A DNA stretch of 64,000 nucleotides from Erysipelotrichales bacterium (GCA_022508535.1 JAFLUZ010000002.1:63379-127378), one strand, 5' to 3'; positions 28,302 through 56,749 are shown, counted from the first letter of the stretch. Notes: generated from the sequence alone by a model not told the origin. Made by a program: numbers and translations.

Positions 28302-28377
28302 GCTTACTTAGCTCAGTCGGTAGAGCTATCGGCTGTTAACCGATCGGTCGTAGGTTCGAGTCCTACAGTAAGCGCCA
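28302..28377 (+). tRNA. tRNA-Asn, anticodon GTT
   Basis: Acceptor GCTTACT/AGTAAGC, anticodon loop CTGTTAA, T-loop TTCGAGT, encoded CCA. Confidence 0.8.
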
Positions 28378-28385
28378 TTTTTATT

Positions 28386-28462
28386 GGCCTATTGGAGAAG
28401 CGGCTTAACTCACATGCCTTTCACGCATGCATTCATGGGTTCGAATCCCGTATAGGTCACCA
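28386..28462 (+). tRNA. tRNA-Glu, anticodon TTC
   Basis: Acceptor GGCCTAT/ATAGGTC, anticodon stem CATGC/GCATG, loop CTTTCAC, T-loop TTCGAAT, encoded CCA. The 3' end is part of the attL repeat. Confidence 0.8.
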
Positions 28463-28465
28463 TTT
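28447..28465. repeat. attL: 19-bp direct repeat cccgtataggtcaccattt (3' end of tRNA-Glu)
   Basis: An identical 19-mer recurs at 43294-43312. Confidence 0.7.
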
Positions 28466-28548: not shown

Positions 28549-29607
28549 CTATTGAAAGTATTGCGCCATTTTTGTTTTTCTAGATGGCAATAAATGAGCA
28601 TATACTCTTATAGTTGTAGATGTATCAGCATGGCCTAACCAGGAAGCCACCAGCTCAATCTCTGCACCTTTATTAAATAAATAAGTTGCGCATGAGTGTC
28701 TAAATTCATGCAACTTAATTACTTTCAAATTTGCGCGTTTGCAGTACTCTACTTGGGCACGTTTTATTGTTGTTTCTCCTATAACACATCCTTTCTTTTT
28801 GGTACTTGGGAATAGGAAATCATCATTTTTATGCTTAATTGATTCAGCATATTCTTCATACGCATATCGTATAGGAATGAGTAGTGGATAATCTCTCAAA
28901 CTAGCTGAAGATTTAACAGAAGTAATTACTTGCTTATGTGAGCCAGTTTTATTACTTACTGCGCGTTTTATATAAACTTTATCCATAACTATATCAGAGT
29001 GTTTTAATCCTCTTAGTTCTCCCATGCGCAATCCGTAATCAAATAGAAGTAGAAAGATTAATTTGTACATGGGTGAATCAATTACAGATAATAATTTTTC
29101 AAACTCTTCATAAGTGTAATAATCAAATTTCTTTGGTTCTACATATTGCTTTTTAAATACATACAAATTAGATTCAGTCACTGCAGGATCTAATCCGTAT
29201 TTTCTTAAAAACATTACATATACTTTTGCAAGAAATATGATATTAGTAATCGATTTAAGTTTAATTTTATTAACATTATTATTAAAAGTTTCTAGCACAT
29301 GATTAGTAACTTTTGATACTTTTAATTTACCGAAATATGGCAATAAATGTTGGTTGTAAAGATTGCTATATCGATACGCTGAAGCCTCTTTATATCTACT
29401 ATATAAATAATCAATGAATCTCTTTGTTAGATCTTCGCATATATATTCAGATTTCTTTTTATATGAATTGATTAGTGTAGGAATATAAGATGAAGCACTA
29501 CGTTTACTATCAAAGCCACGTTTAATATACTGCTTGTTATCGATAGTGATTTTTACATAGTATTTTTGCTCACCTTTTTTTGTTTTGTATCCATAAACGT
29601 TTTGCAT
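28549..29607 (-). CDS. tyrosine-type site-specific integrase
   Basis: C-terminal catalytic region HEFRHSCATYLFNKGAEIELVASWLGHADTSTTIRVYAHL (R..H..R..Y box). Confidence 0.85.
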   Translation of the reverse strand: MQNVYGYKTKKGEQKYYVKITIDNKQYIKRGFDSKRSASSYIPTLINSYKKKSEYICEDLTKRFIDYLYSRYKEASAYRYSNLYNQHLLPYFGKLKVSKVTNHVLETFNNNVNKIKLKSITNIIFLAKVYVMFLRKYGLDPAVTESNLYVFKKQYVEPKKFDYYTYEEFEKLLSVIDSPMYKLIFLLLFDYGLRMGELRGLKHSDIVMDKVYIKRAVSNKTGSHKQVITSVKSSASLRDYPLLIPIRYAYEEYAESIKHKNDDFLFPSTKKKGCVIGETTIKRAQVEYCKRANLKVIKLHEFRHSCATYLFNKGAEIELVASWLGHADTSTTIRVYAHLLPSRKTKMAQYFQ

Positions 29608-29781: not shown

Positions 29782-30405
29782 TTATTCCACCTCCACATAT
29801 TGATAACTTTGAGGAGGCCGTTTAATACAATATTCCTGATGTAAATCTTTAAATAATTTATCAAAAACATTTTCATGATTTGCATAACATTCCATACCGA
29901 TATAATCCTCTTGAGATGATTCTAAATCTGTAAGCTCTTCTGAAAATCCTATTTTATGAAAATCACTTAATTCCATTGGAAAATTAAATGTTTGCAAATT
30001 GTCTATATACCAAGCGTAACCAGTTTTTCCTTTTCCGATATAATTAGATACTTCATCGTATGATAAACAACTTTTTTCCAAGTCGTTATAATTCCAATTT
30101 TGAATAGATCCATTATCAAATACACATATTTGCTCAACTTTATTTAAAGTAAATTTAGCAACTACATTTCCGTTGCCCATATATCCACCAATCGGAATTG
30201 CTGTTTCTCGATTAATAGCATACATGTATTTGGCTCCATAAGAATTTACAACTAGAGCATCGTGTATGCTGCTTTTCGTGCAATAAACATACACATCAAT
30301 TGGAAAATCGCATTTAGGTATTGTTTTTCTAATTTCAATTGTCTTTTCACCATTCAAGATTTTTTCAACCCACTTAGGTTGTATTGATATCAATATAGCT
30401 TTCAT
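29782..30405 (-). CDS. ASCH-domain protein
   Basis: N-terminus MKAILISIQPKWVEKILNGEKTIEIRKT matches the ASCH/PUA-like beta-barrel opening. Confidence 0.5.
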   Translation of the reverse strand: MKAILISIQPKWVEKILNGEKTIEIRKTIPKCDFPIDVYVYCTKSSIHDALVVNSYGAKYMYAINRETAIPIGGYMGNGNVVAKFTLNKVEQICVFDNGSIQNWNYNDLEKSCLSYDEVSNYIGKGKTGYAWYIDNLQTFNFPMELSDFHKIGFSEELTDLESSQEDYIGMECYANHENVFDKLFKDLHQEYCIKRPPQSYQYVEVE

Positions 30406-31970: not shown

Positions 31971-32129
31971 TCACCTTCTTATAAAAAGCAATAGATCCTT
32001 TTGCTTTGGAAATAAATGATTTGAAGGTAATTGATTATCAGCAAAAGTAACTGGATTATTATGAGGTTTGCCTCTGAGTGCCAGTGATCTATACATCTTT
32101 CTAAAATGATTCCAATTTGTATTTTCCAT
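31971..32129 (-). CDS. conserved small ORF (52 aa) shared with element B
   Basis: MENTNWNHFRKMYRSLALRGKP...KQKDLLLF versus MKKTNWNNFRKNYRLLAHKGGTP...KKQRDLF at 56585-56749. It is not in the ORF track. Confidence 0.4.
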   Translation of the reverse strand: MENTNWNHFRKMYRSLALRGKPHNNPVTFADNQLPSNHLFPKQKDLLLFIRR

Positions 32130-32431: not shown

Positions 32432-33232
32432 CTAAAAATCTGTAACTTCTTGCTTGCGCAAACGCCTAGATTTACCAGTGATTTTTAATACTACAGAAGA
32501 TAGTTCATTAATTCGATCAATCGTTTTTTGCTCGTAGCCGTTACAGAACAACTCTCTAATACTTTGATTGGATGTAAATATTACTGGTTTACGTATTGAG
32601 TATCGAAGATTAATCATGTCGTATATTTTTGATTTAGCAAATTGTGAATCGGCTTGTTCTGAGCCTATGTCATCAATAAAAAGGAAATCGACTAATTTTA
32701 AAGATTTCATAATATCTTCTTCAGTCTCTTTTGAGCCATTAAAAGTAGAAGTGATACGCTTAATTAATGAAGATATGTTTGTGAATAAAACTTTATAACC
32801 AGATTTCATTAATTGATTTGCCATGCACGCGATTAAATGTGTCTTCCCAACACCTACATCTCCGTATATATAAATACCTAGATTTTTTTGTAAAATCACT
32901 GCAGCATTAGTACAGTATCTTTTGCACCTTGCATAAGCGTTATTAAATTCTGGATTATCTCCAATCTCACATGTGTCGAATGAACAATTTGTATAACGCG
33001 AATCCATAAGTGAAGCATCTTTTAAATTACTTATTATCTCACGTTCATAATCAGCAATAGCAGCATCTACAGCTTGCTGATTTCTTTTAGCTTTAATTTC
33101 ATCCCATATTGTTGATGGAATTTGCTCCCAGATAGTATCAGGAATTAAATCCATTTCCTCATCAGACATAGACATTATTTTTTCAGCTGTAAGTTCTGAT
33201 GCATCATTAATTGTTATCATGTGTTTCACCAC
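32432..33232 (-). CDS. DnaC/IstB-like AAA+ helicase-loader ATPase
   Basis: Walker A IYGDVGVGKTHLIACMANQL and Walker B LFIDDIGSE. Confidence 0.75.
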   Translation of the reverse strand: MVKHMITINDASELTAEKIMSMSDEEMDLIPDTIWEQIPSTIWDEIKAKRNQQAVDAAIADYEREIISNLKDASLMDSRYTNCSFDTCEIGDNPEFNNAYARCKRYCTNAAVILQKNLGIYIYGDVGVGKTHLIACMANQLMKSGYKVLFTNISSLIKRITSTFNGSKETEEDIMKSLKLVDFLFIDDIGSEQADSQFAKSKIYDMINLRYSIRKPVIFTSNQSIRELFCNGYEQKTIDRINELSSVVLKITGKSRRLRKQEVTDF

Positions 33233-33359: not shown

Positions 33360-33550
33360 TGTTTTTTCTCCTGGATAAATGATAATTTTTGTATTTTAGA
33401 TTTATTGATTACATGTGTAATATTTCCTACTTTTACATGTAATTGTTTAGGTGATTCTTTAATTAAATCGCCGATAATAGAAATAACTTTTGTGCGCCGT
33501 ATGAGGCAATTGGGTTCTAACATCCAGTACACAACATTTACTTTGCGCAT
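33356..33550 (-). CDS. hypothetical protein
   Basis: 64-aa ORF directly downstream of the large membrane protein. Confidence 0.3.
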   Translation of the reverse strand: MRKVNVVYWMLEPNCLIRRTKVISIIGDLIKESPKQLHVKVGNITHVINKSKIQKLSFIQEKKQ

Positions 33551-35763
33551 TACTCTTCATCTCCATATTTAATATTGAAAAATTGTTTAGCAGCAAAAGA
33601 ATGCATACCTTTCCATTCGCTCGGAGATGGTGTTAAAGTTTTAAAAGTTGGCAAGTCGTCGAAATCTAATTTTGATCCATTCATACGCTCCAAATATCCT
33701 TTATGCAAATTTGCAGTGTTGTATCGGCCATATGCGATTTTATGGAATAAATAAATAATATCTTTTGAATACTCCTCTGATTTAACATCCTCAAGAGAAC
33801 CATTAGAACGATAAACATGATATTCATCAAATGAGTATAAATTTATTCTTTTTAAATAGTAGAAGTATAGGATGCTCACAATATTAGACACTAAATAGTT
33901 TGGTAAACTTTTATTAATCTTGATTTCTTCACGCTTCAGCGTATATTCATCAAAATGTTGTAGGATCCATTTAAGAACAAATTGCTCAAACCACCAATGT
34001 TGAAGACCAAATTTCTTTTTTATATTCCCAGTGTCTAAGGTAATAACAGTTTCAAAAGTGCCACGTGTTTCTTTGTTTACACCAGTATTCTTCTGATCGT
34101 TTCCAAGAAATTTAAAAGCTGGTTTTTTTCTTAGTGAAGCACCATGTCGCCATGTTTTTAAATTATCAGTGGCCTTATCATTATTGCGATTAACTCCAGA
34201 TGCTAAATTTGATTCTTTTTTCAAAGTATCAGAGTTTCCACGTTCCTTACCAAATTCTGTGAACAAAAATAGTCCAAAATCATAGAAATAGTAATCTGGT
34301 TTTTCATAATTAGCAAATTTTAAACCTGGTCGCATAAAGTCATAATTAACTATTACACATGATTTTCTTTTTAGATATTCTTTTGGTGTTTCTTTTAAAA
34401 TGTTTGTTTTATCAATGTTTAAATAGTGAGGTTTAGGATTTGTGTTATCGTTGAACATTACAGTATAATTGGCAACAGCATATGGGTTTTTATGTATGTA
34501 TAAGAAATACGCTAAAATCCAATCTCTTAAAGCATCTGTAAATGATTCGAATGTAAGACCATCCCACATTTTGTATTTTGAACCTGGTTCTAGATATAAA
34601 AGACTATAATCTTTAGTTATCTTGAATTTTTTTTCAAGTTCTGCAACATAGATATAAATATCTAATTGGTTATGGAATACACGAGTTTTCTTGTAGAATT
34701 CGACTTCACTCATCCATTTTGACCAGTTCGCTTGTGGAAATCTTTTTTGAATATCTAACATAGTGTTAAGAAGTTGTTTAGGAAACATTATCTGTTTATA
34801 GATAACTCCTAAACAAGTTCCAAGTGCATCCTTACCAGCTCCTGATATGCCTAAGAAAAGAATTTGTTGCCCAGAAGTATCTAAAAATTCTATATCATGA
34901 TCTAATTTCTTTTCCATAGTTTTATCTGCTTTGTATAATCTCCATAAATCAAAAAGTAGATAATAACTTATAAATCTTAAAGGAAAAGGAATTGTAAGCC
35001 ATTTAGGAAGAAAATCAATAAGTATTGTTAATAGACCTTTCCAGATGATACTCCAATCCACAGTTCTATTAATGACAGTTCCTAAAAAATGAAAGTAATT
35101 TGAAATTAGATCCAATAGAATTACTGGAAGATTTAGATAAATAGCAAATATTATTATCAGCATGACTGTTAACCATTTTTTGAAGAATTTCTTGCGCCAT
35201 GTATTAACCTTATTGAACAATTTAATAGATGGATTCCTAATTCTCTTTTTATATCGTTTAAGCGCTCTTGTATCTTCAGCAACATCATTTTTCTTATATC
35301 TTCTGAATAGTGATAGCAAAAGACCAAATAGCACTAATACAAGTATTAAATTAAAATATATGAGTGCCTTATCCATTTTGAAAGATAACTCTATACCTAT
35401 GAATTTCCAAAATGTACCATTTATAAGAAACGCAACAAAAACTTTAGCTCGTTTTATTAGTATCTGGAAGTCAATTGGAATAAGGTTAAGAATGGAGCCT
35501 CCAGCGTTCTCAATTAAATGATCAAGTGGAACTTGCAATGTTCCAGGACTATCTTTATTAGCTGTTATATAATAAATTGCAGATTGAAAGAAGTATTTAA
35601 TAGTAATCCATAGTCTTTTGACATTATCGAATGAGAAAAGAAAAAATAAAACCAATAACAAAACTAAAAATATTAATTGCTTCCAGTTGTTTTTAATAAA
35701 CTGATTAATCGCAATCAAAAAGTTAAGAAATATTGATTTTATTTTATTGAAAAATATTCTCAT
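33550..35763 (-). CDS. large polytopic-membrane P-loop-like protein (core module of elements A and B)
   Basis: Five or more N-terminal TM helices, P-loop-like GISGAGKD and the shared motif FLFTEFGKERGN. It is homologous to the gene at 54393-56543 (VLITEGGKERGN). Confidence 0.5.
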   Translation of the reverse strand: MRIFFNKIKSIFLNFLIAINQFIKNNWKQLIFLVLLLVLFFLFSFDNVKRLWITIKYFFQSAIYYITANKDSPGTLQVPLDHLIENAGGSILNLIPIDFQILIKRAKVFVAFLINGTFWKFIGIELSFKMDKALIYFNLILVLVLFGLLLSLFRRYKKNDVAEDTRALKRYKKRIRNPSIKLFNKVNTWRKKFFKKWLTVMLIIIFAIYLNLPVILLDLISNYFHFLGTVINRTVDWSIIWKGLLTILIDFLPKWLTIPFPLRFISYYLLFDLWRLYKADKTMEKKLDHDIEFLDTSGQQILFLGISGAGKDALGTCLGVIYKQIMFPKQLLNTMLDIQKRFPQANWSKWMSEVEFYKKTRVFHNQLDIYIYVAELEKKFKITKDYSLLYLEPGSKYKMWDGLTFESFTDALRDWILAYFLYIHKNPYAVANYTVMFNDNTNPKPHYLNIDKTNILKETPKEYLKRKSCVIVNYDFMRPGLKFANYEKPDYYFYDFGLFLFTEFGKERGNSDTLKKESNLASGVNRNNDKATDNLKTWRHGASLRKKPAFKFLGNDQKNTGVNKETRGTFETVITLDTGNIKKKFGLQHWWFEQFVLKWILQHFDEYTLKREEIKINKSLPNYLVSNIVSILYFYYLKRINLYSFDEYHVYRSNGSLEDVKSEEYSKDIIYLFHKIAYGRYNTANLHKGYLERMNGSKLDFDDLPTFKTLTPSPSEWKGMHSFAAKQFFNIKYGDEE

Positions 35764-35782
35764 AATAATTCCTCCTGCAGAA

Positions 35783-36211
35783 TTAATACTCGTAAAAATA
35801 AATATTATTGGTTATATCTAGTAGTCCATCCTTAACGAAATAAAGTTGCGTATCTTCCAATTCAGGATTGAGAAAATCTACATTAATTAAATAGTTCTCT
35901 GAATCAATTTCATAAGTGTAATAATAGATTTCTCGATTAATGATATTTTCTTCATCATCAAACTCATATTGATAATAAGTTCCAAGAAAATCATGCTCGC
36001 TATCGAATTCATAAATCATTCGTATATCATCTGTAAAAAATGTTTTGCCTAAAACACTCATATCAGCATCAATAATTGACATAGAATACTGATAAGCATT
36101 TTTTAAAATAAATAAAATGATAAGTATAAATACTACTAATAGCAGTCTTAAAAAGAATTTAAGCTTTTCGCCTTTATCAAATTTGATATTAGAATCAGGA
36201 GTCATTATCAA
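35783..36211 (-). CDS. small TM protein
   Basis: N-terminal TM helix LLLVVFILIILFIL; acidic Tyr-rich ectodomain. Confidence 0.4.
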   Translation of the reverse strand: MIMTPDSNIKFDKGEKLKFFLRLLLVVFILIILFILKNAYQYSMSIIDADMSVLGKTFFTDDIRMIYEFDSEHDFLGTYYQYEFDDEENIINREIYYYTYEIDSENYLINVDFLNPELEDTQLYFVKDGLLDITNNIYFYEY

Positions 36212-38460
36212 GTCCTCTTATTGGGTTTCTTACCAAATTCATCTAGAATCCATTTTATTAAAAATACAACAGCTACAATGACAACAAGTATAGCAATCCA
36301 CTTAAAAGTATTAGTGAAAAAATATCCCAGTTTATCCCAGAATGTTTCTTTGTGAAATATATTGTCTGGAGGTTCCACTTCGTTACCTATTGGATCTTTT
36401 AAAGTTCCAGTTTCCTCATCGTAGTGCAAAGGTAATTCATTACCCTCATCATCCATAATGACTGTATCACCATTTTTATCAAACGCAGTCAACCCAGAAT
36501 GATTGCCCCATGTCATAGCCGAAGCATTTACAATATCACCAGCTTCATTTATATAAAAACATTCAATAAGACTGTCAAAATCAAGATTGACACCCCTATT
36601 ATAAATAACATAAGTATATGGTGCCAAACGACCGAATTCCCCTATAAATGTATAAGCATTTTGATCAGCCAATGAAACACCTTGAAAAGTAAATTCAACA
36701 CCAGTTGATTCATCTTTTTTTGTAACATGATTATTCTTTTCATCTACATAATCTATAATAGGATGTTGAAAAACATTTCCATCATAAGCAATACCAGCTT
36801 GGATTCCATCACCAGAAAGAATATCAAAACTGTGTCTTACTTTATTTTTCTCACTTGCTAATGTATAGTAAAATTTAATACCATGTAGCTTATCAATTTG
36901 ACAATTAATAACACTATCATAGACATTAAAGAATAAACGTGTATAGGGTGATAATATACTTTCTACTTCTCTAGCTTCAAATTTTGCAGTATGAATTGTT
37001 GTCTTATCGACATACTTAAATTTATAGTATTGCCCACAATCAATGACATAATCAAGTATGTTTTTTGGTTCATCTGCAGCAGCTGTAACTGCATAAGTAG
37101 AAGATGATTGATTTTTTAATCTTGATGGTAATTGAACAAGTGATTCAATCTTATCTTTGCCAAACTTTGCAGTTGGATCTAAAGTCCTTTTCCAATCATC
37201 AGGAGTTACCATTAAAGATTCTGAAACTTCATTAGTAAGTTTACCAAGAGTAATATGATATTTGATTTCAGTGATATAAAAATCAACTTCTTGCTTAGCG
37301 TTCTTTAATTGCTCAAAGAAATCGCAGCTTGCAGTATCATAAGTGAAAGCAACACCATTATATTTCAAGTTATATTGTTGCATTTTTTCATAAAGAGAAT
37401 TATCAAAATCTAGTACATTATGAAATAAATCTAAATTGCGTATTTTACATTCAATCTCAAGATCATCATTTATAACTATAGAATCAACAACATATCTGTT
37501 CGCAGATACGGATGATATTGTTGACATTACACCCGTATTAAAATCAATGTTATTAATTAAAATTGGACCAAAAACTGAATGATTATAGCAATCTTTTTCT
37601 AAATAAAGATTTTGGACTAAAAATTCATAAGTTCCGATTGTGATAAATCCATAATTATTTAGCATTGATCTTTCATGACCTGTATAGATGCGCCAATACT
37701 TAGCAGACACTGTTTCTATATGTCTACGGTATGGGATTTCAACATACACAAATCTATTTTTATTATAAGCATTAGAAGAATCAGTTGTTTTATCTAAATA
37801 TACATGTGCATCATCAGATGTAGTAAGCGTGAAATCATTACCAGTCTTTTCTAAACTTAAGATAGTTTGACCATCAATCTCAAGTAAAGGGAGTTCAAGA
37901 TCATACTGATATGGTAAAAATAATTTTTTATAAAATTCAAAAAAATCAGTGCCTAAATCAAGCTTAAATTCAATTGGTAATGCTTGGCCTTTATCATTTT
38001 CAATGCGTTCAAATTCATAATTAAAAGTGCCTTTTAAATCAAATAATGAGCAATATGTCCCACCAGCAATGAATAAAGCTGTATTAGATAATTGAGTTTT
38101 ATTTAAAGGATTATTCGAAGAATTTGACTTGTACAGAAGACTAAGCGCTTGAATTTTGTTCTCATACACGTAATCGGCATACGAATCCATCAAATCAGTG
38201 TTATATTCAAAGACTTCGTAATCATCATGATATTTTGTTGGATAAGTAGTGTTTATAAATTCAGTATCTTCATCATCAAAATATTCTTTGTTCTTTTGTT
38301 GAAGATATGAACTTGCTTTACCAGAAACAATTGTTTTTTCTTCTGCAACTGCAGTAGTAGTATTATTTTTAATTAATCCTGGTATTAAAGAAGATGCTAA
38401 TAGTAAAAGTGAATTTAATCCTAAAAGTAATTTATTCATGATACACCAACTCACTTTCAT
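36208..38460 (-). CDS. large type-I membrane protein (signal peptide + ~700-aa ectodomain + C-terminal TM anchor + basic tail); putative virion spike or adhesin
   Basis: Signal LLLGLNSLLLLASS..TAVAEE and C-terminus WIAILVVIVAVVFLIKWILDEFGKKPNKRT. The architecture matches the gene at 59790-62033. Confidence 0.45.
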   Translation of the reverse strand: MKVSWCIMNKLLLGLNSLLLLASSLIPGLIKNNTTTAVAEEKTIVSGKASSYLQQKNKEYFDDEDTEFINTTYPTKYHDDYEVFEYNTDLMDSYADYVYENKIQALSLLYKSNSSNNPLNKTQLSNTALFIAGGTYCSLFDLKGTFNYEFERIENDKGQALPIEFKLDLGTDFFEFYKKLFLPYQYDLELPLLEIDGQTILSLEKTGNDFTLTTSDDAHVYLDKTTDSSNAYNKNRFVYVEIPYRRHIETVSAKYWRIYTGHERSMLNNYGFITIGTYEFLVQNLYLEKDCYNHSVFGPILINNIDFNTGVMSTISSVSANRYVVDSIVINDDLEIECKIRNLDLFHNVLDFDNSLYEKMQQYNLKYNGVAFTYDTASCDFFEQLKNAKQEVDFYITEIKYHITLGKLTNEVSESLMVTPDDWKRTLDPTAKFGKDKIESLVQLPSRLKNQSSSTYAVTAAADEPKNILDYVIDCGQYYKFKYVDKTTIHTAKFEAREVESILSPYTRLFFNVYDSVINCQIDKLHGIKFYYTLASEKNKVRHSFDILSGDGIQAGIAYDGNVFQHPIIDYVDEKNNHVTKKDESTGVEFTFQGVSLADQNAYTFIGEFGRLAPYTYVIYNRGVNLDFDSLIECFYINEAGDIVNASAMTWGNHSGLTAFDKNGDTVIMDDEGNELPLHYDEETGTLKDPIGNEVEPPDNIFHKETFWDKLGYFFTNTFKWIAILVVIVAVVFLIKWILDEFGKKPNKRT

Positions 38461-39748
38461 TAATAGTTATGAAATAAAAATTATTATTAAATGATTGTAA
38501 AATAGTTCCTATTTCATTAATGTCAGTAACTTCATCTTCACCAGTCCAGTAGAAGAATGCTCCAGTGCCGGTATTACCCCATTCAAATACATTGTTTGAA
38601 TATGTAGTTTCTGTTTTAGTAGTTTGATCTGCATAATTTATTTGAGTTTCAATTTTTACTCTATATGCACGACCATAATCAATTGTGTAATTATCAACAT
38701 AAAACCATTTCGTATCCTCATACTTATTTAATGCTAGTTCATAATTTATTCCAGTCTCATCTTCTGATGTAGATTGTTGTAAATAATATGTTGTGAATGA
38801 TGAAGCGATTTCTTTTGTTTCAACTTCGTAGCAATGTTCTAGTGCGTATTTTGAATTGCCATAAATACTAACAAAATCAAATTCGATTTTTAAAGGTTTG
38901 CTAGGATCAAAATTTTTCTTTTCGCTTAATTCTAAGTTGTTGCAAAAAATACTATTTTTATCTAAATAAAGATGAGAATAATTTTGAGTGCTGGAAGTAG
39001 TAGAAAGTTCAGTATATTCGATTAGATTAATATTTTTTATTTCAATGTTAATAAAATTAGTGCTTAAATCATCAAAATAAGATAAGTCTAATGACTCACT
39101 TTCCCAAATATATCTTTTACCTGCAATAAATTCTGTTGGATGTTTTCTATCATCTTTTTCTTCATTTGAAGGATCATCAAATGTTGGTTGCTCAAGATTT
39201 AAAAAGTATAATCCGTTGCTAAATTCTTTGATAATCTTATCTTCTTCATTATTAATGAGTTTTAAAACTTCAGCATGAGAATCAGATTTACCAATATAGT
39301 AGAAAAAAGCACCAGTACCACTCCAACCCCATTCGTAATTATTGTTTGAGTAAGTTTTCTCAGTTTCAGATACACCATTAGCGTATAGCTTGATTGTGTC
39401 TATTCTAATTCTGTAGGCGCATCCATAATTTACATCGTAATTATAGAAGCAGTACCAATTTGGATCATATTCATCAATGCCGATTTGATATGGATTTAAT
39501 TGAAGTTCATAATAATCATTTGTTTCATTATTATATTGTTCTAAAATGTAAAAATTCTTTTTTTCAATTACTTCTCCAATAGATGGTAGTGATGGCTTTT
39601 TAGAAGTATTATTATCAGCGTTGGTTTTTACCGTAGCATAGACTACTCCACCTACAGTAATTACAGCTAATAAAATTAAAATAAATTTTAAAAATTTTTT
39701 CATGTTTTTGCTCCTTAAAAAATAAAGCGCATTTACAACTAGAATCAT
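38432..39748 (-). CDS. secreted or membrane-anchored protein with two ~130-aa repeat domains
   Basis: Repeats YELQLNPY...YGCAYRIRID...YSNNNYEWGWSGTGAFFYY and YELALNKY...YGRAYRVKIE...YSNNVFEWGNTGTGAFFYW. Homolog of the gene at 62055-63029. Confidence 0.45.
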   Translation of the reverse strand: MILVVNALYFLRSKNMKKFLKFILILLAVITVGGVVYATVKTNADNNTSKKPSLPSIGEVIEKKNFYILEQYNNETNDYYELQLNPYQIGIDEYDPNWYCFYNYDVNYGCAYRIRIDTIKLYANGVSETEKTYSNNNYEWGWSGTGAFFYYIGKSDSHAEVLKLINNEEDKIIKEFSNGLYFLNLEQPTFDDPSNEEKDDRKHPTEFIAGKRYIWESESLDLSYFDDLSTNFINIEIKNINLIEYTELSTTSSTQNYSHLYLDKNSIFCNNLELSEKKNFDPSKPLKIEFDFVSIYGNSKYALEHCYEVETKEIASSFTTYYLQQSTSEDETGINYELALNKYEDTKWFYVDNYTIDYGRAYRVKIETQINYADQTTKTETTYSNNVFEWGNTGTGAFFYWTGEDEVTDINEIGTILQSFNNNFYFITINESELVYHE

Positions 39749-39773: not shown

Positions 39774-40004
39774 TTATTCTACGTAATTAATAACGTATGT
39801 ACCGTGCGCAGTTGCGACATCAGATGTTGATGTTTTATCACCATTAACTGCATCTTTGATGTTGTCCCATTTTTCTTTGGTTTCATCTAAGGTGTTTTTA
39901 AGTCCTTTGTTCCCCAAAGAAACTCCAGCTGCGATAACTCCAATTGATAGAAGTGCACCGAGAATGCCGAGACCTATTTTCGCCCAGATACTCTTTTTTT
40001 TCAT
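39774..40004 (-). CDS. small membrane protein
   Basis: One TM helix IGLGILGALLSIGVIAAGV. Confidence 0.4.
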   Translation of the reverse strand: MKKKSIWAKIGLGILGALLSIGVIAAGVSLGNKGLKNTLDETKEKWDNIKDAVNGDKTSTSDVATAHGTYVINYVE

Positions 40005-40350: not shown

Positions 40351-40635
40351 CTATTTAACTAATTCTTTGTATTTATTTGTAATCTTTGAATCGATTTTAT
40401 AAGCATATAACACGGCATCTTGAACGATTTTTTCGTAGATTGGAACATTATTTATTAGTTCATGCGTATTGCTAATTATTACATCCAGTACAATTGTTTT
40501 TTTTAATAAAGTTAGTTTGAATGTAACTGTACTTATAACACCATTTCCACAATCGAATATGTGAAGCTTTGTAAATAGATTTTTATTAATCTTCTTAAAA
40601 TCTATTGATTCTAAAAATTCAATGAATTTATCCAT
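40351..40635 (-). CDS. hypothetical protein
   Basis: 94-aa ORF that overlaps the upstream gene by 8 nt. Confidence 0.3.
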   Translation of the reverse strand: MDKFIEFLESIDFKKINKNLFTKLHIFDCGNGVISTVTFKLTLLKKTIVLDVIISNTHELINNVPIYEKIVQDAVLYAYKIDSKITNKYKELVK

Positions 40636-41080
40636 CTTTTAAGTCATCCTCGTATCCTGGTGGAAGTGAACGTTGCATTCTTGCTTCTGCACGCCTATCA
40701 GATTGTTCTTTTGCTTTTTGAGTAGTAGATGCTACCATATACGGAAAATCTGGAAGTATAATTGTTCCGGATGTGTCGTTTGCAAACTCAATTAATCCAA
40801 CTTCCTCAAATTCCTTTATTGTCTTTTCGACAAATTCAGGATCAAGTTTTAATACTTGAGCAAGAAGTTTAGATGAATATGGAGTTTTATAATTAAATCT
40901 TAAATACCCATCTTCTTTTCCTGATTTAACGACTAGATGAAGCATTCGTTCGTATAAATAAATCTTCATGTGCCATTTATCAAGTTCTTCACGTGTGGAT
41001 CCAACTAGCAATGCATTAAGGCGATCATCATCGTAGAAGTTGTTATATTTCTTTAAGTAGAATAATTTTCGTTCACTCAT
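40628..41080 (-). CDS. phage replisome-organizer N-terminal-domain protein (DnaD-like)
   Basis: N-terminus KLFYLKKYNNFYDDDRLNAL...IYLYERMLHLVVKSG..GYL fits the replisome-organizer pattern F..K.y.dFfdD.ki..L... Confidence 0.45.
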   Translation of the reverse strand: MSERKLFYLKKYNNFYDDDRLNALLVGSTREELDKWHMKIYLYERMLHLVVKSGKEDGYLRFNYKTPYSSKLLAQVLKLDPEFVEKTIKEFEEVGLIEFANDTSGTIILPDFPYMVASTTQKAKEQSDRRAEARMQRSLPPGYEDDLKDG

Positions 41081-43293: not shown

Positions 43294-43312
43294 CCCGTAT
43301 AGGTCACCATTT
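43294..43312. repeat. attR: second copy of the 19-bp tRNA-Glu 3'-end repeat
   Basis: gcccgtataggtcaccattt sits in a non-coding AT-rich stretch with no tRNA around it. Confidence 0.7.
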
Positions 43313-47442: not shown

Positions 47443-49392
47443 TTATTTAGCAGCAGTAATACTTATTGTATTAGTACTTGCGTTCCATGTAATAGTGTAA
47501 GTTCCAGCATTTTTAAATTTCATATTGTTATTATCACTAGTATCGATTGTAACATATGTTTGACTTGCTGAATCTAATTTTTCGCCACCATACCAATTAT
47601 TACTATCTGAAACAATTTTAAATGGTACACCTGCACTGAATGAACCAGTATAAGCGAAGATATTATTTCCTTGACTTTTCATACCATAATTATCATTTAC
47701 GCCCCAACCAGTCATTTCGCCAATTACAAACCATTTGAAAACTTCAGATTGTTCAAAATTATCTCCAAAGTTTCCCCATTTTCCAGCACCATTTACAGAT
47801 GTTAAGAAGTAGACAGGGTGTTCATAATCATAAGATAAGTCACCAGTTTGGTGCGCGCCTGCATCAGTACTATTCATACCATTACTGAAGATTACTTTAT
47901 TATAAGCGTCTTTTTCTACTTCATATTTGTAACATCCATGTTCTGAATCAAGAGTCATTAATTCGCCTGGCCATGCTGCTTTTGGTTTGTTTGTATCTGA
48001 ATTCCATGTATAAACATAGTAATTATTCCATGAGACACCATCTATTGGTGAAAGGTAGAATGTAAAGACATCTCCGCCTGGGATTGGATCTGGATCTACT
48101 GGATCAAAGGAATCCCCAAAATTACCCCATTTACCACCTTTAAGTGAAGTTAAGAAGAATACTGGATGTTCATAATCAAATTCTAAATCGTCTGTTTGAT
48201 GTGCTCCTGCAACAGTGCTATCTAATCCGTTACTAAAAATAACTTTATTGTATGTACCTTTTTCAATTTCGTACATATAGCAATCATTTTCTGAATCATA
48301 ATTCATCATTTCACCTGGCCATCCCACTTTTGGTGTGTCGGTTTCTGAATTCCATGTATAAACATAGTAATTATCCCATGAAACTCCTTCTATTGGTGAA
48401 AGATAGAACTTGAACATTTCTCCTCCTGGAATTGGATCTACCACTGGGTCAAAGTGATCGCCAATATTTCCCCATTGTCCAGCTTTAAGTGAAGTTAAGA
48501 AGAATACTGGATGTTCATAATCAAATTCTAAATCTTTTGTTTGGTGCGCTCCTTCAACAGTACTATCTAATCCATTACTGAAAATAACTTTGTCGTAAGC
48601 ATCTTTTTCAATCTCATAAGTATAGTATTGTTTTTCTGAATCGTAGTTCATCATTTCACCTGGCCATCCAACTTTTGGTGTGTCAGTTTCTGAGTTCCAT
48701 GTATAAACATAGTAGTTATCCCATGAAATTCCTTCTACTGGTGAAAGATAGAATGTAAATGTGTCTGGAATTATTGGATCAAAATGATCGCCAATATTTC
48801 CCCATTGTCCACCTGTAAGTGAAGTTAAGAAGAATACTGGGTGTTCATAATCAAATGCCAAATCTTTTGTTTGATGGGCACCTGGATCCGTATCATTCAA
48901 ACCATTATTGAAAATAATTTTATCGTAGGCACCTTTTTCAATTTCGTAAGTGTAGTATTGTTTTTCTGAATCGTAGTTCATCATTTCACCTGGCCACGAT
49001 ACTTTTGGTGTGTCAGTTTCTGAATTCCATGTGTAGACATAGTAATTATCCCATGAAATTCCTTCCACTGGTGAAAGATAGAATGTGAATGTGTCTGGAG
49101 TTGGAGTTGGATCAACAACCGAAGTGCTTGGATCTGTTACACTGTTGTTTGGACCAACTGACTCACTTGGTTTTGTTTCACTATCTGAACCAACTGAAGT
49201 ACTTGGTTTATTATCATCTGATCCTGTGGAATTTCCTGTGACTGATTCTGGACCAGTAGAATCGGGTCCTTTAACTGAAACACTTGGTTCACCCGTTGAT
49301 CCAGGAACATCATTAGATTCGCCATTGTTTCCACCACACGCAACTAGTAAACCTGCTAGAGCGATGGCAAGTAAAAACTTACTTTTTTTCAT
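47443..49392 (-). CDS. lipoprotein with four ~111-aa tandem repeats (CBM25/26-like putative glycan-binding modules) and a C-terminal domain
   Basis: MKKSKFLLAIALAGLLVACGG; four copies of FTFYLSPVEGISWDNYYVYTWNSETDTPKV.WPGEMM...VIFSNGL...AHQT.DL.FDYEHPVFFL. The WPG..M and I.FNNG...QT.D pattern resembles starch-binding modules. Confidence 0.5.
   Translation of the reverse strand: MKKSKFLLAIALAGLLVACGGNNGESNDVPGSTGEPSVSVKGPDSTGPESVTGNSTGSDDNKPSTSVGSDSETKPSESVGPNNSVTDPSTSVVDPTPTPDTFTFYLSPVEGISWDNYYVYTWNSETDTPKVSWPGEMMNYDSEKQYYTYEIEKGAYDKIIFNNGLNDTDPGAHQTKDLAFDYEHPVFFLTSLTGGQWGNIGDHFDPIIPDTFTFYLSPVEGISWDNYYVYTWNSETDTPKVGWPGEMMNYDSEKQYYTYEIEKDAYDKVIFSNGLDSTVEGAHQTKDLEFDYEHPVFFLTSLKAGQWGNIGDHFDPVVDPIPGGEMFKFYLSPIEGVSWDNYYVYTWNSETDTPKVGWPGEMMNYDSENDCYMYEIEKGTYNKVIFSNGLDSTVAGAHQTDDLEFDYEHPVFFLTSLKGGKWGNFGDSFDPVDPDPIPGGDVFTFYLSPIDGVSWNNYYVYTWNSDTNKPKAAWPGELMTLDSEHGCYKYEVEKDAYNKVIFSNGMNSTDAGAHQTGDLSYDYEHPVYFLTSVNGAGKWGNFGDNFEQSEVFKWFVIGEMTGWGVNDNYGMKSQGNNIFAYTGSFSAGVPFKIVSDSNNWYGGEKLDSASQTYVTIDTSDNNNMKFKNAGTYTITWNASTNTISITAAK
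47930..49095. repeat. ~330-bp in-frame tandem DNA repeats (four copies)
   Basis: For example, 48631-48715 and 48961-49045 are near-identical. Confidence 0.75.
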
Positions 49393-50969: not shown

Positions 50970-50997
50970 GATTAGCGAATCACGCTGATCTTTTTTT
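50970..50997 (+). terminator. terminator of the CarD-family gene
   Basis: Stem gattagcg/cgctgatc with loop aatca and an 8-T run. Confidence 0.6.
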
Positions 50998-51084
50998 GTT
51001 ACATTTCGTTATTCTTAATTTGTCAAGGACGTTTCTAAAAAATTTTTTATTTTTTTAAATTTCAATATTTTATGAGATTAAAAC

Positions 51085-51207: not shown

Positions 51208-52180
51208 TTATTCTACTACACCAAAGTCAATTAACATTCTTTCTTTACGCTTTTCAATAGGTGTTTTCCAACCTAATGTGAAACTAGGAATGTTATTTGA
51301 CCTTTTTAAATATGCTTTCATCTGATGTAATAAATCATCATAAGAATAAAACTTCAGATATTTATAAAATCTTTCGTTATCGTTTCTATGTGAACGCTCA
51401 ACTTTTCCATTGTGTCTAGGCGTTCGAGGTTTTATAAGTTTATGTTCGATTCCTAATTCTTCGCATAATAAATCGAACTTGTGAACTTTACCAATTTCTT
51501 TTAAAAAAGTAAATTCTTGCCCATTATCAGTTTGAATGATTTTTGGTGTATATCCAAAATAATTGATCGCACGTCTTACAAAATCACAAGTTGAATCTGC
51601 ACATTGTTCTTTGTAAGGATATATAAAACGTTCTCTTGTTGCCTCATCAATAATAGTGTATTGATAAAACTTCATATCGAACGGAACATCTTTTGTTCTA
51701 CAATCATAAGGAACAACTTTTACATCCAACTGCATTTTTTCACCAATAGAAATAGGTGTAAAATACTTTTGAGGTTTATAGTTCTTTCGATCTTTCTTTA
51801 AATCTTTAAAATAATTATTTTTTCTTAAATAACGATATAATGTAACCGGATTTCTTGAATAACCATAATTCACACGTAACTTTCCATATAATTCACTCAA
51901 TCCAATATTAGGATTGCGACGAACTAAATCTTGTATATGCTTTTTTTCTTCTGAAGTTTGCTCACGTGGATTTGGTGTTAAAGGAACATGAGATCCATTT
52001 TCTAAACTTTCTAATGTTCCATCATATTGTTTACGCCACCTATATAATGTTCGTATCGTACAATGATAACGATGTGCTACAAATTCGAACGAATTTCTTT
52101 TTAACATATTTAATGCTTTTAACTTTTCTTTTGGATCATAAGGATTATTAAACTTTCTTTTTTCTAAACTAACTAACATA
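51208..52180 (-). CDS. IS-type DDE transposase (HTH + rve integrase core; IS30/IS481-like)
   Basis: rve motifs TIIDEATR, IIQTDNGQEF and GKVERSH, with an N-terminal HTH. RBS aggaagtga lies before the ATG at 52180; the track start at 52224 is probably an N-terminal extension. Confidence 0.75.
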
Positions 52181-52251
52181 ACATCACTTCCTAACTTTAA
52201 AAATTTCAAATAAAATGTTAACATATATACACAAATTGAGAGGGCAATAAT

Positions 52252-52998
52252 ATGGGTAAAAAATGTTTAGCATGTAATAATATAATAGACAAAGCAAATC
52301 ACTATGTTTGTAATGACTGCTATAAAGAAATAAGATCAATCAAAGATGAGTATCTACCTTTAAGAGAATCAACTTTAAAAAAAGAATATTCAAGATGGCT
52401 ACGAAATTTGAACTTAACAAGAAATCCAATATATAAAAAGGAATATCAACTAAAAGTAATTGCAATCGCAGAGGTCATGAATGATAAATATAGAAACAAT
52501 CGATATATAACAAATATAATCGATTATTCAAATAATCAAACTGCAAGTAATAATATTACAATCAAAAAAGATGAAGAAATCGAAGAACAAGAATTTAACG
52601 AACAAAACAAAGATCCAGATGTCGATTTAAAAAATTACTCTACATATAAAAAATGTAACGACGGACATAGAGTTATATCTAAATCAGAAAAAATAATTGA
52701 TGACTTATTAACGGAAAAAGGAATAAGACATTATTACGACATGGAAATAGACGATAACACAAATTATCGTTATGACTTTTATTTACCGGATTACAAAATC
52801 TATATTGAACATTGGGGATTCAAAGATAGAGAAAATTACGAAATCAGAAAAAGAAATAAATTAGAATACTATAAGTCAAATGATTATATTCTTGTAGAAA
52901 GCGACGAAGAAACAATTAACGATAGACATAATTTAATCAAAGCATTACGAAAAGTGGCACCAAATATATTTTCTAAAAAGTCTGATAAAATCGACTAA
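52252..52998 (+). CDS. zinc-ribbon + DUF559/Vsr-like (PD-(D/E)xK fold) endonuclease-domain protein
   Basis: N-terminal CLACN...CNDC. The C-terminus SKSEKIIDDLLTEKGI...RYDFYLPDYKIYIEHWG matches the DF.LP....IE.DG pattern of DUF559/Vsr-like nucleases. Confidence 0.45.
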   Translation: MGKKCLACNNIIDKANHYVCNDCYKEIRSIKDEYLPLRESTLKKEYSRWLRNLNLTRNPIYKKEYQLKVIAIAEVMNDKYRNNRYITNIIDYSNNQTASNNITIKKDEEIEEQEFNEQNKDPDVDLKNYSTYKKCNDGHRVISKSEKIIDDLLTEKGIRHYYDMEIDDNTNYRYDFYLPDYKIYIEHWGFKDRENYEIRKRNKLEYYKSNDYILVESDEETINDRHNLIKALRKVAPNIFSKKSDKID

Positions 52999-53273: not shown

Positions 53274-54197
53274 CTAACACGACATCTTTACTAACATATC
53301 ACTATCAATAATATCTACATCATCAAATAAAACATACTTTTTAACAAATTCACCAAACTCACAAAGAATATATTTACTATCTTCTTCATCAAATTTTATA
53401 TACAAAAACGTTGGGATACCCCTAGAATAGAATATTTTTTCATTACTTTTAGAAATATACTTTAACAAATAATTAATAGTTCCATCATGTTTTAAATTTT
53501 TACAATCAATCTCAACAAAATCATTACGTCCAAATCGCTTTTCAAAAAATGTGTTTATATGTGTAATACGCATTTTTTTATCGCTTGTAGAATAATCAAT
53601 CTTATTAATTATCTCACCACGCATTTCACCATTTGGAACATACATTAATCCATGAAAATGTAATCTTCCTTTTAATGACCTTTCAAACACACCCATACAT
53701 CTATAACCATAACGACTATGAAGATTAGAAAAACACTTCTTTAATTTATCAACAAATGATATTTCATCATGTTTATTATCATCATAAGTAAAAGTAACAA
53801 AATAATTCCAAATATTATTTAATGCTTTCTTTCTAAAACGATCAAGACGCGATTTTAATAACTTCGCTTTTGTTTTTAAAAAATTAATAACAACTTTTTC
53901 AGATATATCAGAATCATAATTTTTCAATTCACTTAACATAAAACGTAATCGATCTTTATCACTTACATCTTTTTCAATAGACAACAAATAAATTTCATCT
54001 AAAATATTATCTTCTTCATTTACAATTTTCGCACCACCTCTTTTAACATTACATTTACCATAAGTACGAACAAATTCACTTTCATAATTACGTATAGATT
54101 CTTTTTCTTTTACAACTTCTAAATCCTTTTTATAATAACGGATTGCCACATTGTGAGATCCGTCATTAAAACATCTATATAATGTTTGTGCAGCCAT
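53274..54197 (-). CDS. rolling-circle replication initiator (HUH endonuclease, phiX174-A / superfamily I type)
   Basis: HUH motif GRLHFHGLMYV and a double-tyrosine motif YLLKYISK (Y-x-x-K-Y-x-x-K). Confidence 0.65.
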   Translation of the reverse strand: MAAQTLYRCFNDGSHNVAIRYYKKDLEVVKEKESIRNYESEFVRTYGKCNVKRGGAKIVNEEDNILDEIYLLSIEKDVSDKDRLRFMLSELKNYDSDISEKVVINFLKTKAKLLKSRLDRFRKKALNNIWNYFVTFTYDDNKHDEISFVDKLKKCFSNLHSRYGYRCMGVFERSLKGRLHFHGLMYVPNGEMRGEIINKIDYSTSDKKMRITHINTFFEKRFGRNDFVEIDCKNLKHDGTINYLLKYISKSNEKIFYSRGIPTFLYIKFDEEDSKYILCEFGEFVKKYVLFDDVDIIDSDMLVKMSC

Positions 54198-56584: not shown

Positions 56585-56749
56585 CTAAACACTATTATCC
56601 AAATCCATCTTTACAATATCGAATAAATCCCTTTGCTTTTTAAAAAACTTATTTTCATCAAAAATTACATCTTGAATAAAAGGCGTACCACCTTTGTGTG
56701 CCAATAATCTATAATTCTTTCTAAAATTATTCCAATTTGTTTTTTTCAT
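56585..56749 (-). CDS. conserved small ORF (54 aa), homolog of the ORF at 31971-32129
   Basis: MKKTNWNNFRKNYRLLAHKGGTPFIQDVIFDENKFFKKQRDLFDIVKMDLDNSV; not in the ORF track. Confidence 0.4.
   Translation of the reverse strand: MKKTNWNNFRKNYRLLAHKGGTPFIQDVIFDENKFFKKQRDLFDIVKMDLDNSV

Follow-up and report, generated by a model that had tools for sequence, protein, structure and literature searches.

In filamentous phages, an ATPase of the FtsK family occurs together with replication modules that vary and include IS3/IS30 transposases (PMC13595969); inoviruses are recognised by a pI-like ATPase that has one or two transmembrane (TM) domains and for which Zot is the nearest Pfam domain (PMC6813254). 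The Plectroviridae (Tubulavirales), represented here by SpV1-R8A2B, are small and circular, live in hosts of the Bacillota/Mollicute lineage, often in several copies per genome, and are exported without lysis (PMC13595969). In SpV1 the N-terminal TM helices of p01 lead straight into a Walker A/B ATPase, ORF1 (715 aa) combines a signal peptide with a C-terminal TM helix, ORF3 is an IS30-family DDE transposase, and there are at least seven small hydrophobic ORFs. The archaeal Pleolipoviridae, whose genomes measure 7-16 kb, combine a conserved membrane/morphogenesis module with non-homologous replication modules (HUH Rep among others); they have a C-terminally anchored spike and a putative NTPase (PMC13595969). 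Acholeplasma phage L2 (Plasmaviridae), whose hosts are wall-less, has a ~12-kb genome coded on one strand, no capsid genes, and large signal-peptide envelope proteins, including a 738-aa precursor encoded beside a smaller envelope protein. DNA can also be transferred with no virion, as in the actinomycete AICEs (int/rep/tra/spd), where a conserved transfer gene sits amid variable replication modules.

We set against these systems two integrated elements, A and B, found in a 64,000-nucleotide stretch of Erysipelotrichales DNA (GCA_022508535.1, JAFLUZ010000002.1:63379-127378; the window). Element A, ~14.85 kb long, is bounded by the 19-nt repeat CCCGTATAGGTCACCATTT, of which the attL copy (28447-28465) lies at the 3' end of a tRNA-Glu gene (28386-28462) and the second copy is attR (43294-43312). 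It encodes on the minus strand a tyrosine integrase (28549-29607; PF00589 and PF14659), an IstB/DnaC-like AAA+ helicase loader (32432-33232; PF01695) and the N-terminal domain of a phage replisome organiser (40628-41080; PF09681), the last two being its replication genes, and it has no rolling-circle Rep. Element B comprises 16,810 bp between perfect 26-nt direct repeats, at 50988-51013 and, past the window end, at window-equivalent 67798-67823 (L011 5772-5797). Within these limits lie a DDE (rve) transposase/integrase of gene family c17 (51208-52224, minus strand), a divergently transcribed double-zinc-ribbon protein (52252-52998, plus strand) with counterparts in the circular contig L034 and in locus L001, and an HUH rolling-circle Rep (53274-54197, minus strand; PF23343, REP_ORF2-G2P). 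The initial annotation had proposed a membrane module shared by two otherwise different elements, and its limits for element A (28.4-43.3 kb), its integrase, DnaC-like, replisome-organiser and HUH Rep assignments, now backed by Pfam domains, and the contrast of backbones itself (HUH Rep in B, integrase and organiser in A) all held. Its start for element B, 53.0 kb, lay too far inside, and it overlooked the DDE gene, which means that element B does have an integration gene. A host gene for a CBM26 protein is located between the two elements.

At the centre of the module is a membrane ATPase, of 737 aa in element A (33550-35763) and 716 aa in element B (54393-56543), both on the minus strand, that aligns end to end between the two (23% identity, 719 aa, E 5e-28), confirming the proposed homology. 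Hydropathy places three to four TM helices at the N-terminus, ahead of an ASCE P-loop domain, and both proteins carry a Walker A motif and an invariant TE.GKERGN block. The element B protein has four N-terminal TM helices, a GKGKTT Walker A and the motifs ITEGGKERGN and IFDEQRPES; that of element A belongs to a divergent subfamily in which Walker A reads GKD and DQKN replaces EQRP, and with GKD instead of GK[ST] its activity may be impaired. By sequence, the ATPase matched nothing in Pfam, NCBIfam, PHROG, PADLOC or PDB, in line with the earlier failure to place it with Zot, FtsK, VirD4 or terminases. Prediction gives it the fold of a RecA/FtsK/TcpA/Zot-like ASCE ATPase, placed after four TM helices, and profile comparisons with FtsK, TcpA, pI and SpV1 p01 (using hhalign for FtsK, TcpA and SpV1 p01) aligned only around Walker A. 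This ASCE fold is generic, and phage extrusion and conjugation are equally compatible with it; the question of a virion module versus an apparatus for conjugation or DNA export is narrowed to a membrane-anchored ASCE motor resembling DNA translocases.

The exported proteins of the module carry ordinary N-terminal hydrophobic segments of the Sec type. The largest, of 750 aa in element A (36208-38460, minus strand) and 747 aa in element B (59790-62033, minus strand), have by hydropathy an N-terminal signal-like segment, a single C-terminal TM helix and a basic tail (very basic in element B), and neither has a Pfam or PHROG match or gave a usable alignment. They show no detectable sequence similarity to each other (best BLASTP E 2.3), and their correspondence is limited to position and topology. 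The sole relative detected for the element A protein is a 704-aa protein of the related locus L003 (21% identity), and the element B protein found no homologue except itself, even where the ATPase was 66% identical; this large surface protein is hypervariable. The next proteins, N-anchored or secreted, of 438 aa in element A (38432-39748, minus strand) and 324 aa in element B (62055-63029, minus strand), have in common a ~120-aa domain, present twice in A (aa 58-187 and 305-431) and once in B (aa 54-175), the two A copies being 66% and 39% identical to that of B (E 2e-47 and 2e-22). It is a beta-sandwich like that of carbohydrate-binding modules (CBM), resembling the starch-adherence proteins of gut bacteria. 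The 66% identity of this domain between A and B, against 23% for the ATPases, points to a recent exchange of a host-specific part.

Smaller genes, all on the minus strand, complete the set. Element A has a single gene between the 750-aa and ATPase genes, for a 142-aa N-terminally anchored protein (35783-36211) homologous to a 133-aa gene in the equivalent position of L003, whereas element B has at least nine small genes in the corresponding interval. These include genes for a 119-aa N-terminally anchored protein (58853-59212) kept in L001 and L012-L014, and a 130-aa basic protein (59313-59705) of the small basic family c14, which adjoins the module in 16 loci. A 54-aa ORF of element B (56585-56749) has its counterpart in a 52-aa ORF of element A (31971-32129; 42% identity, E 8e-9). 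Element B further encodes a 184-aa protein, N-anchored or secreted (63040-63594), whose paralogue-like 211-aa neighbour upstream runs off the window end. The sole small hydrophobic candidate in element A is a 76-aa single-TM protein (39774-40004) preceded by a Shine-Dalgarno site, and element B has no single-TM ORF below 100 aa.

The six large minus-strand ORFs, their coordinates, their topologies and the repeat motif of the secreted proteins were thus as first described, and the syntenic three-protein set survives for the ATPase and the secreted domain; it fails for the ~750-aa pair, in which no sequence similarity is detectable, and the gene order is looser than supposed. Nor are the three proteins equally conserved: the ATPase alone is universal, and the repeat-domain protein is restricted to A, B and one relative. 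Absence of the module from other mobile elements had been named in advance as evidence against it; it is found in hundreds of genomes as well as in two independent circular metagenomic contigs. A homologue search returned at least 1,975 ATPase matches. Clustered at 50% identity, the family numbers at least 1,268 clusters, almost every listed member being 700 to 780 aa long. The family is present in 392 species genomes and at least 536 metagenome loci, its carriers being mostly gut Christensenellales and Clostridia, with Erysipelotrichales and Anaeroplasmataceae also represented and Pumilibacter intestinalis CLA-AA-M10 as a cultured carrier. Several copies per genome are frequent.

We surveyed the neighbourhoods (+/-10 kb) of 84 ATPase loci. 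A protein family with a signal peptide and a C-terminal TM helix was found in 61 of them, N-anchored proteins recur around the ATPase, and basic proteins with a net charge of +15 to +27 adjoin it. In 49 loci the gene immediately downstream of the ATPase encodes a PF23343 Rep homologue, and 51 loci have a DDE transposase, the gene after Rep being a c17 DDE in 12 related loci and an IS30-like DDE in 39 more. Replication can be served by a G2P-type Rep, an HUH-S3H Rep, or replisome organiser plus DnaC, and integration by an IS30/IS3-like DDE transposase or a tyrosine integrase; these modules are interchangeable around the conserved membrane module. Genes of the elements are tightly packed on one strand. 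The two circles, of 13,013 and 14,521 bp, both contain the module, a Rep and a DDE gene and no recognisable host gene, and in one of them an intact IS30-like transposase is regained across the junction. As the initial annotation had noted for A and B, neither element has a capsid, portal, terminase or tail gene, and no capsid, terminase, tail or type IV secretion (T4SS) gene was detected in the elements or among the conserved neighbours of the 84 loci. In 87 of 166 related loci, neither A nor B among them, a conserved ORF of 30 aa with a single TM helix lies right beside the ATPase gene.

In our proposal, A and B represent two divergent branches of a large and undescribed family of 11-17 kb mobile elements carried by gut Bacillota. 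These elements integrate into chromosomes and have circular forms, and their core would be a DNA-export and particle-forming module supporting a chronic, non-lytic, capsid-less phage-like lifestyle; we regard this proposal as evenly poised. In it, four N-terminal TM helices of the ~720-750-aa protein would tie its RecA/FtsK-like ASCE ATPase part to the membrane, alongside one or two large Sec-exported proteins, kept in place by the C-terminal helix and short basic tail and evolving very fast, like host-recognition proteins. N-anchored or secreted beta-sandwich proteins (with a CBM-like domain in A and B) and small, strongly basic proteins would make up the rest. After excision and replication, the basic proteins could neutralise the DNA of the element, the ATPase would then bring it to or through the cytoplasmic membrane, and the DNA would exit from the still-living cell within a particle that lacks a capsid and bears the anchored proteins, which could bind surface glycans of the next host and mediate entry. 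Such a lifestyle would be akin to that of plectroviruses and inoviruses or of plasmaviruses and pleolipoviruses. Tentatively, and short of an even chance in our judgement, they may form a new lineage, at family level or higher, of chronically released capsid-less phages of walled gut Clostridia/Christensenellales and of Mollicute relatives, common in human and animal guts and invisible to current virus-detection tools, in which a four-TM FtsK-like ATPase, anchored hypervariable spikes and putative DNA-condensing basic proteins have no detectable sequence homology to classified viruses.

Likeness to SpV1 extends to host lineage, small circular genome, frequent multiple copies, the order of TM helices and ATPase, the large anchored protein and the transposase (SpV1 ORF3 is 29% identical to those of the family), and non-lytic export would be expected here too. 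The family ATPase is, however, twice as long as p01, has four TM helices and ends in an additional C-terminal domain, and its match to p01 is confined to the Walker A region (hhalign probability 33%); small hydrophobic ORFs number one or none in the window's elements, which differ from SpV1 also in their strongly basic proteins and in having several large exported ones. Replication by rolling-circle Rep or IS3/IS30 transposase, typical of Tubulavirales, is seen in element B (PF23343 Rep and rve) and not in element A, whose replisome organiser and DnaC-like protein form a dsDNA-type module. The ATPase lacks the Pfam Zot match that defines inovirus pI (PMC6813254), and its TM helices are N-terminal, four rather than one or two; pIV is absent, and the window shows no recognisable pVIII-like coat protein. 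Pleolipoviruses offer a likeness of organisation with no demonstrated homology, their hosts being archaeal and their NTPase not a four-TM membrane protein. None of the module proteins shows detectable homology to any virion protein. As to particle form, we lean slightly towards a rod or filament over a membrane vesicle for the Rep/DDE-type elements; against a filament stand the lack of a clear 30-90-aa hydrophobic coat protein in A and B and of a rolling-circle Rep in A, and against an enveloped particle the mostly walled clostridial hosts, with no cell-wall hydrolase found. The near absence of the family from virus collections, with two IMG/VR loci and, in 50,697 phage genomes, a single unverified record, counts against the phage reading as a whole.

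That same near absence would be expected if the elements were minimal conjugative or DNA-transfer elements, in which a TraB/FtsK/TcpA-like membrane pump sends double-stranded or Rep-nicked single-stranded DNA into an attached neighbour, the surface proteins being mating adhesins or surface-exclusion factors. The layout of the ATPase (four TM helices, motor and C-terminal domain in ~720-770 aa) would suit such a pump, pCW3 TcpA and Streptomyces TraB likewise having N-terminal TM segments before a RecA-like motor, and its strand followed by QRP(E/S), which we also count in favour of our own proposal, is similar to LATQRPS of FtsK and GVQRPD of TcpA. As in AICEs, int/rep genes accompany a single big membrane ATPase and replication modules vary around it; walled hosts would be no obstacle, and a glycan-binding domain would fit cell-cell adhesion. 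We nevertheless find this explanation doubtful, if the most serious rival. There is no Pfam FtsK_SpoIIIE match even at E<=1, no T4SS partner, and no relaxase, VirB4, VirB6-like protein or cell-wall hydrolase among the conserved neighbour clusters (+/-10 kb, 84 loci), and the ATPase gene occurs on none of 72,556 plasmids, an absence that also speaks for the phage-like proposal. To our knowledge, conjugation of double-stranded DNA by a single protein is restricted to mycelial actinomycetes. It would also remain unexplained why the large surface protein varies so extremely and why very basic proteins are conserved.

It is improbable, in our view, that the module transfers nothing and that the elements are DDE- or integrase-borne replicons whose cargo is surface proteins of benefit to the host (adhesins or glycan binders), the ATPase having another membrane task such as EssC/EccC-like protein export, defence or exclusion. 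The similarity of the CBM-like domain to gut-bacterial starch-adherence proteins and the host CBM26 gene between the elements would agree with this, whereas the Sec-type segments of the exported proteins and the lack of a PADLOC match do not. Moreover, the invariant gene is the ATPase and not the cargo; it takes up about one sixth of the 13-kb autonomous circle and the surface proteins another third, and cargo is not what one would expect to find most conserved and best positioned when backbones differ. A true plasmavirus, the relation to L2 first suggested, is very improbable and largely refuted at the sequence level: for all the comparable size (12-17 kb), one-strand coding, large signal-peptide proteins, Mollicute relatives among the hosts and, in element A only (B having DDE and 26-nt repeats), tyrosine integrase at a tRNA gene as in L2-like prophages, the integrase is the only L2 protein that BLASTP matched to the elements' ORFs, tblastn of both ATPases against phages gave no L2 match, HMMs of the ATPase, the large anchored family and 11 neighbour clusters found nothing significant among L2 ORFs, L2 has no such ATPase (its ORF1 is not one; hhalign with query A1, probability 0.1%), and most hosts here are walled.

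If the elements are phages, a sizeable and unrecognised share of gut mobile DNA, with 392 species representatives, would belong to a non-tailed, non-lytic type of virus that virome pipelines miss, as the scarcity in IMG/VR and among phage genomes indicates. The capsid-less, membrane-assembled type would then extend from Mollicutes to walled Firmicutes, which raises the question of how the thick wall is crossed. A one-protein conjugative DNA pump, if that is what they encode instead, would be the first of its kind beyond the actinomycetes. On either reading, a testable function is gained for a large protein family that has no model in Pfam, NCBIfam or PHROG, and the cultured carrier Pumilibacter intestinalis makes the question accessible to direct testing.

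For elements A and B, the two integrated elements of the window, which comes from a MAG of an Erysipelotrichales bacterium and has a GC content of ~29%, all six ORFs proposed in the initial annotation were found in place. They had been described as a three-protein set shared by both elements, and this description held for two of the three. The multi-TM P-loop protein, hereafter the ATPase (minus strand, 33550-35763 in A and 54393-56543 in B, the latter sharing 100% identity with NCBI protein J1F32_01755 of a 334-kb contig), aligned end to end between the elements (23% identity over 719 residues, E 5e-28), and hydropathy placed 3-4 TM helices at the N-terminus of both copies, as had been claimed. 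The secreted repeat-domain proteins were likewise related through a common domain of ~120 aa, present in two copies in A (38432-39748) and one in B (62055-63029), with 66% and 39% identity, and the repeat motif quoted earlier is visible in the domain alignment. On the other hand, the ~750-aa proteins, previously taken as the same gene, showed no detectable similarity (best E 2.3) and are equivalent by position and topology only, each having by hydropathy the predicted N-terminal signal-like segment, single C-terminal TM helix and basic tail. An all-against-all comparison of A with B returned a single further common gene, a ~52-aa non-hydrophobic ORF (31971-32129 in A, 56585-56749 in B; 42% identity, E 8e-9), which is found a short way upstream of the ATPase gene in B and 1.4 kb downstream of it in A. 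A protein with an ASCH/DUF3850 (PUA-like) domain is encoded in both elements (29782-30405 in A; 58006-58839 in B, as a fusion with an N-terminal TM helix and a zinc ribbon), and DUF3850 is present also in the element of a related locus, L001.

The limits of element A were borne out by a 19-nt repeat at 28447-28465, the 3' end of tRNA-Glu, and at 43294-43312. At this site tRNA-Asn and tRNA-Glu lie in tandem (28302-28462), and element A is inserted at the 3' end of tRNA-Glu, regenerating it. Pfam agreed with the earlier assignment of its integrase, IstB/DnaC-like ATPase and replisome organiser, and confirmed an HTH repressor. Element B extends past the window end, and its far boundary was obtained from the parent contig. 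Confining the search to the Rep side gave no att repeats; widening it to take in the DDE gene gave a perfect 26-nt direct repeat, at 50988-51013 and at 5772-5797 of L011, the parent-contig continuation (~67.8 kb equivalent), for which the chance expectation is none, so that element B measures 16,810 bp. The repeats enclose a DDE (rve) transposase gene (51208-52224) and a divergent double-zinc-ribbon gene (52252-52998), both of which had been placed outside the element. The HUH Rep of element B was matched by PF23343 (REP_ORF2-G2P) in Pfam. Between 52000 and 64000 the GC content of element B is 24-28%, below that of element A, and GC skew is -0.23 to -0.37 in B, -0.03 to -0.13 in A and -0.11 to -0.24 in same-strand host genes. 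The skew of element B might reflect a single-stranded replication stage of a Rep-type element, its figures including any coding-strand purine bias.

The core proteins of the family are without any family model among the libraries searched: scans of all module proteins against Pfam, PHROGs, NCBIfam and PADLOC gave no match, for both ATPases even at lax thresholds, and an ATPase family profile (A1, a 43-sequence alignment) found nothing real among PDB sequences, only two weak spurious matches. ATPase relatives were present in 392 of 185,579 species genomes and in at least 536 metagenome loci. A separate count gave 1,268 clusters at 50% identity (E<=1e-3), nearly all of 700-780 aa; the B-type had 1,975+ matches in 90% clusters and the A-type a single close relative, from pig gut. 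Carriers are mostly gut Christensenellales and Clostridia MAGs, with Bacilli, Anaeroplasmataceae and Erysipelotrichales also represented, and include one cultured strain, Pumilibacter intestinalis CLA-AA-M10. By tblastn no plasmid matched, and the one match among phages was an unverified, unannotated 57-kb faecal record. Several MAGs hold two family copies on separate contigs (L020/L022, L021/L075, L030/L036, L056/L082, L026/L028), and the window likewise has two, recalling the multi-copy SpV1 of Spiroplasma. Conserved residues are, in B numbering, K294, T295, E486, G488, K489, E490, R491, N493, Q540, R541 and P542. In the A subfamily (33550-35763 and P0001), GK(D/N) replaces GKT/GK[ST] and QKN/QRN replaces QRP, while the TE.GKERGN block is retained; to judge from these substitutions, nucleotide hydrolysis may be altered or lost in the A-type ATPase.

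An AF2 model of the ATPase from the alignment (pLDDT 74, pTM 0.69) comprises an all-helical membrane domain of ~280 residues, followed by an alpha/beta P-loop domain and a helical/beta C-terminal part. The figures listed for this model were 10.7 for the pCW3 coupling protein TcpA, 10.0 for VirB4, 9.8 for FtsK, 9.5 for the Zot N-domain (17% identity), 9.3 for phi8 P4, 9.2 for STIV2 B204 and ~9 each for HerA, EccC and TrwB. Foldseek of the model against BFVD gave nothing significant (best E 1.6e-3, an unnamed protein), with FtsK-like, A32-like and Zot entries at E ~0.1. The ATPase motif strand-DEQRPES is like LATQRPS of FtsK and GVQRPD of TcpA, and the strand-QRP motif is not present in M13 pI, SpV1 p01 or the VirB4-like TcpF. 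When the family profile was compared by hhalign with single FtsK, TcpA, TcpB, TcpF, M13 pI, SpV1 p01 and L2 ORF1 sequences, and likewise with an FtsK+TcpA pair, only Walker A was aligned, and since the profile alignments end there, the link to FtsK/TcpA is drawn at the level of motifs. We take the protein to be a true ASCE ATPase, anchored in the membrane and belonging to the RecA/FtsK-HerA/Zot neighbourhood, and its succession of four TM helices, motor and C-terminal domain is the architecture of membrane DNA translocases. It fits no named family, in line with the failure of the initial annotation to assign it.

Clustering of same-strand ORFs within +/-10 kb of the ATPase gene at 84 loci yielded a consensus element. 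Its operon opens with c5 (120-180 aa), also the first gene of element B, a family suspected to be SSB-like for which there was no PDB or PHROG match; then come small acidic and basic proteins, one to three N-anchored or secreted proteins (c8, c6, c2), one or two large proteins with a signal peptide, ectodomain, C-terminal TM helix and basic tail (the c4/c7 family of large anchored proteins occurs at 61 loci), a very basic small protein (net charge +15 to +27), the ATPase, a PF23343 Rep (49 loci) and, last, a DDE transposase, IS30-like at 39 loci and of the other rve type, as in B, at 12. An alternative backbone at 18 loci has an HUH plus superfamily-3-helicase Rep upstream, and element A and its pig-gut relative L003 have a replisome organiser, with or without DnaC, plus a tyrosine integrase. 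The conserved clusters of the 84 loci included no relaxase, VirB4, VirB6 or cell-wall hydrolase, and the capsid, portal, terminase and tail genes reported as missing from A and B were missing here too. In L016 (2699-3325) and 12 other loci, a gene for a SprT-like metalloprotease (PF10263) is found ~7 kb upstream of that for the ATPase. A single-TM micro-ORF of 30 aa (MKTLKRLLWVLLGIVIAAVIGYFIYTG..V), with its own Shine-Dalgarno site, is conserved in 87 of 166 related loci, where it ends at or overlaps the ATPase gene start (outside the window, for example L016 9888-9980, L019 9888-9980 and L015 9906-9998); it was not found in A, B or their closest relatives, and is a candidate for a coat-like protein or for a partner of the ATPase in the membrane. 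Two loci closed into circles: L034, from yak caecum, through a 141-nt terminal overlap (13,013 bp, closure making a 363-aa IS30-like transposase whole across the junction), and L155, from a separate study, through a 55-nt overlap (14,521 bp). Both have the Rep, secreted and anchored proteins, basic proteins, ATPase and DDE enzyme, L034 having in addition an opposite-strand zinc-ribbon gene resembling that of element B. No host gene was recognisable in either circle, and thus an autonomous small replicon has the module as its main content.

A homologue search with the 747-aa protein of element B against 5.8 billion proteins returned only itself, and no relative was found even in L012, where the ATPase is 66% identical. 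The sole match to the 750-aa protein of element A was the 704-aa product of the gene in the corresponding place of L003 (21% identity, E 1e-24), and an iterated HMM of the c4/c7 family detected neither protein. Turnover of this kind, with the position kept, is what host-recognition proteins typically show. The repeat domain is confined to A, B and L012, and its 66% identity between A and B, where the ATPases share 23%, points to recent exchange between elements in a common host. We read it as a glycan-binding adhesin domain; CBM20/21/26 modules appear in lower places of its structure list. A 649-aa host protein encoded between A and B (47443-49392) has two CBM26 starch-binding modules, and the fold of the repeat domain is starch-binding-module-like.

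The closest set of parallels is offered by plectrovirus SpV1-R8A2B, which has a 337-aa protein whose N-terminal TM helices lead straight into Walker A/B, a 715-aa protein that begins with a signal peptide and has a TM helix at its C-terminus, and an IS30 transposase 29% identical to that of the element family. However, SpV1 has many small hydrophobic ORFs, a set lacking in A and B, and its ATPase matches that of the family around Walker A only (hhalign probability 33%). Filamentous phages are defined by an FtsK-family ATPase and a small hydrophobic helical coat protein and have swappable replication modules, including IS3/IS30 transposases in Plectroviridae, a modular pattern also seen in pleolipoviruses (Krupovic et al. 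2026, PMC13595969). For a protein to count as pI-like, Roux et al. 2019 (PMC6813254) ask for Zot as its nearest Pfam domain and for one or two TMDs; the ATPase family shows neither feature.

The invariant gene of the family is a membrane-anchored translocase-like ATPase on small autonomous integrative replicons, and the other conserved content consists of exported, anchored, fast-evolving surface proteins and putative DNA-neutralising basic proteins. Lysis, capsid and T4SS genes are absent from the elements. The most economical mechanism, to which we give about an even chance, is non-lytic export: the DNA of the element would leave at the membrane and enter a particle that has no capsid, and the anchored proteins on that particle would bind glycans of a new host. 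Several features speak for a thin rod or filament (walled hosts, a G2P-type Rep, DDE transposases, the parallels with SpV1, the 30-aa micro-protein), others for a membrane vesicle (basic proteins, spike-like topology and, in element A, a backbone of dsDNA type). A one-protein conjugation system of the TraB/TcpA kind is a less probable alternative. Readings in which the module has no part in transfer are improbable. A true relative of Acholeplasma phage L2, as the initial annotation had suggested, is very improbable: L2 resembles the elements in its size, in coding on one strand, in tRNA integration and in having large envelope proteins with signal peptides, but the integrase is the sole homologous protein and L2 has no ATPase of this kind. 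In the literature searched we found no description of an element family defined by this ATPase. Small chronic capsid-less elements that encode a membrane ATPase are known already as a kind of system; the present variant is not.
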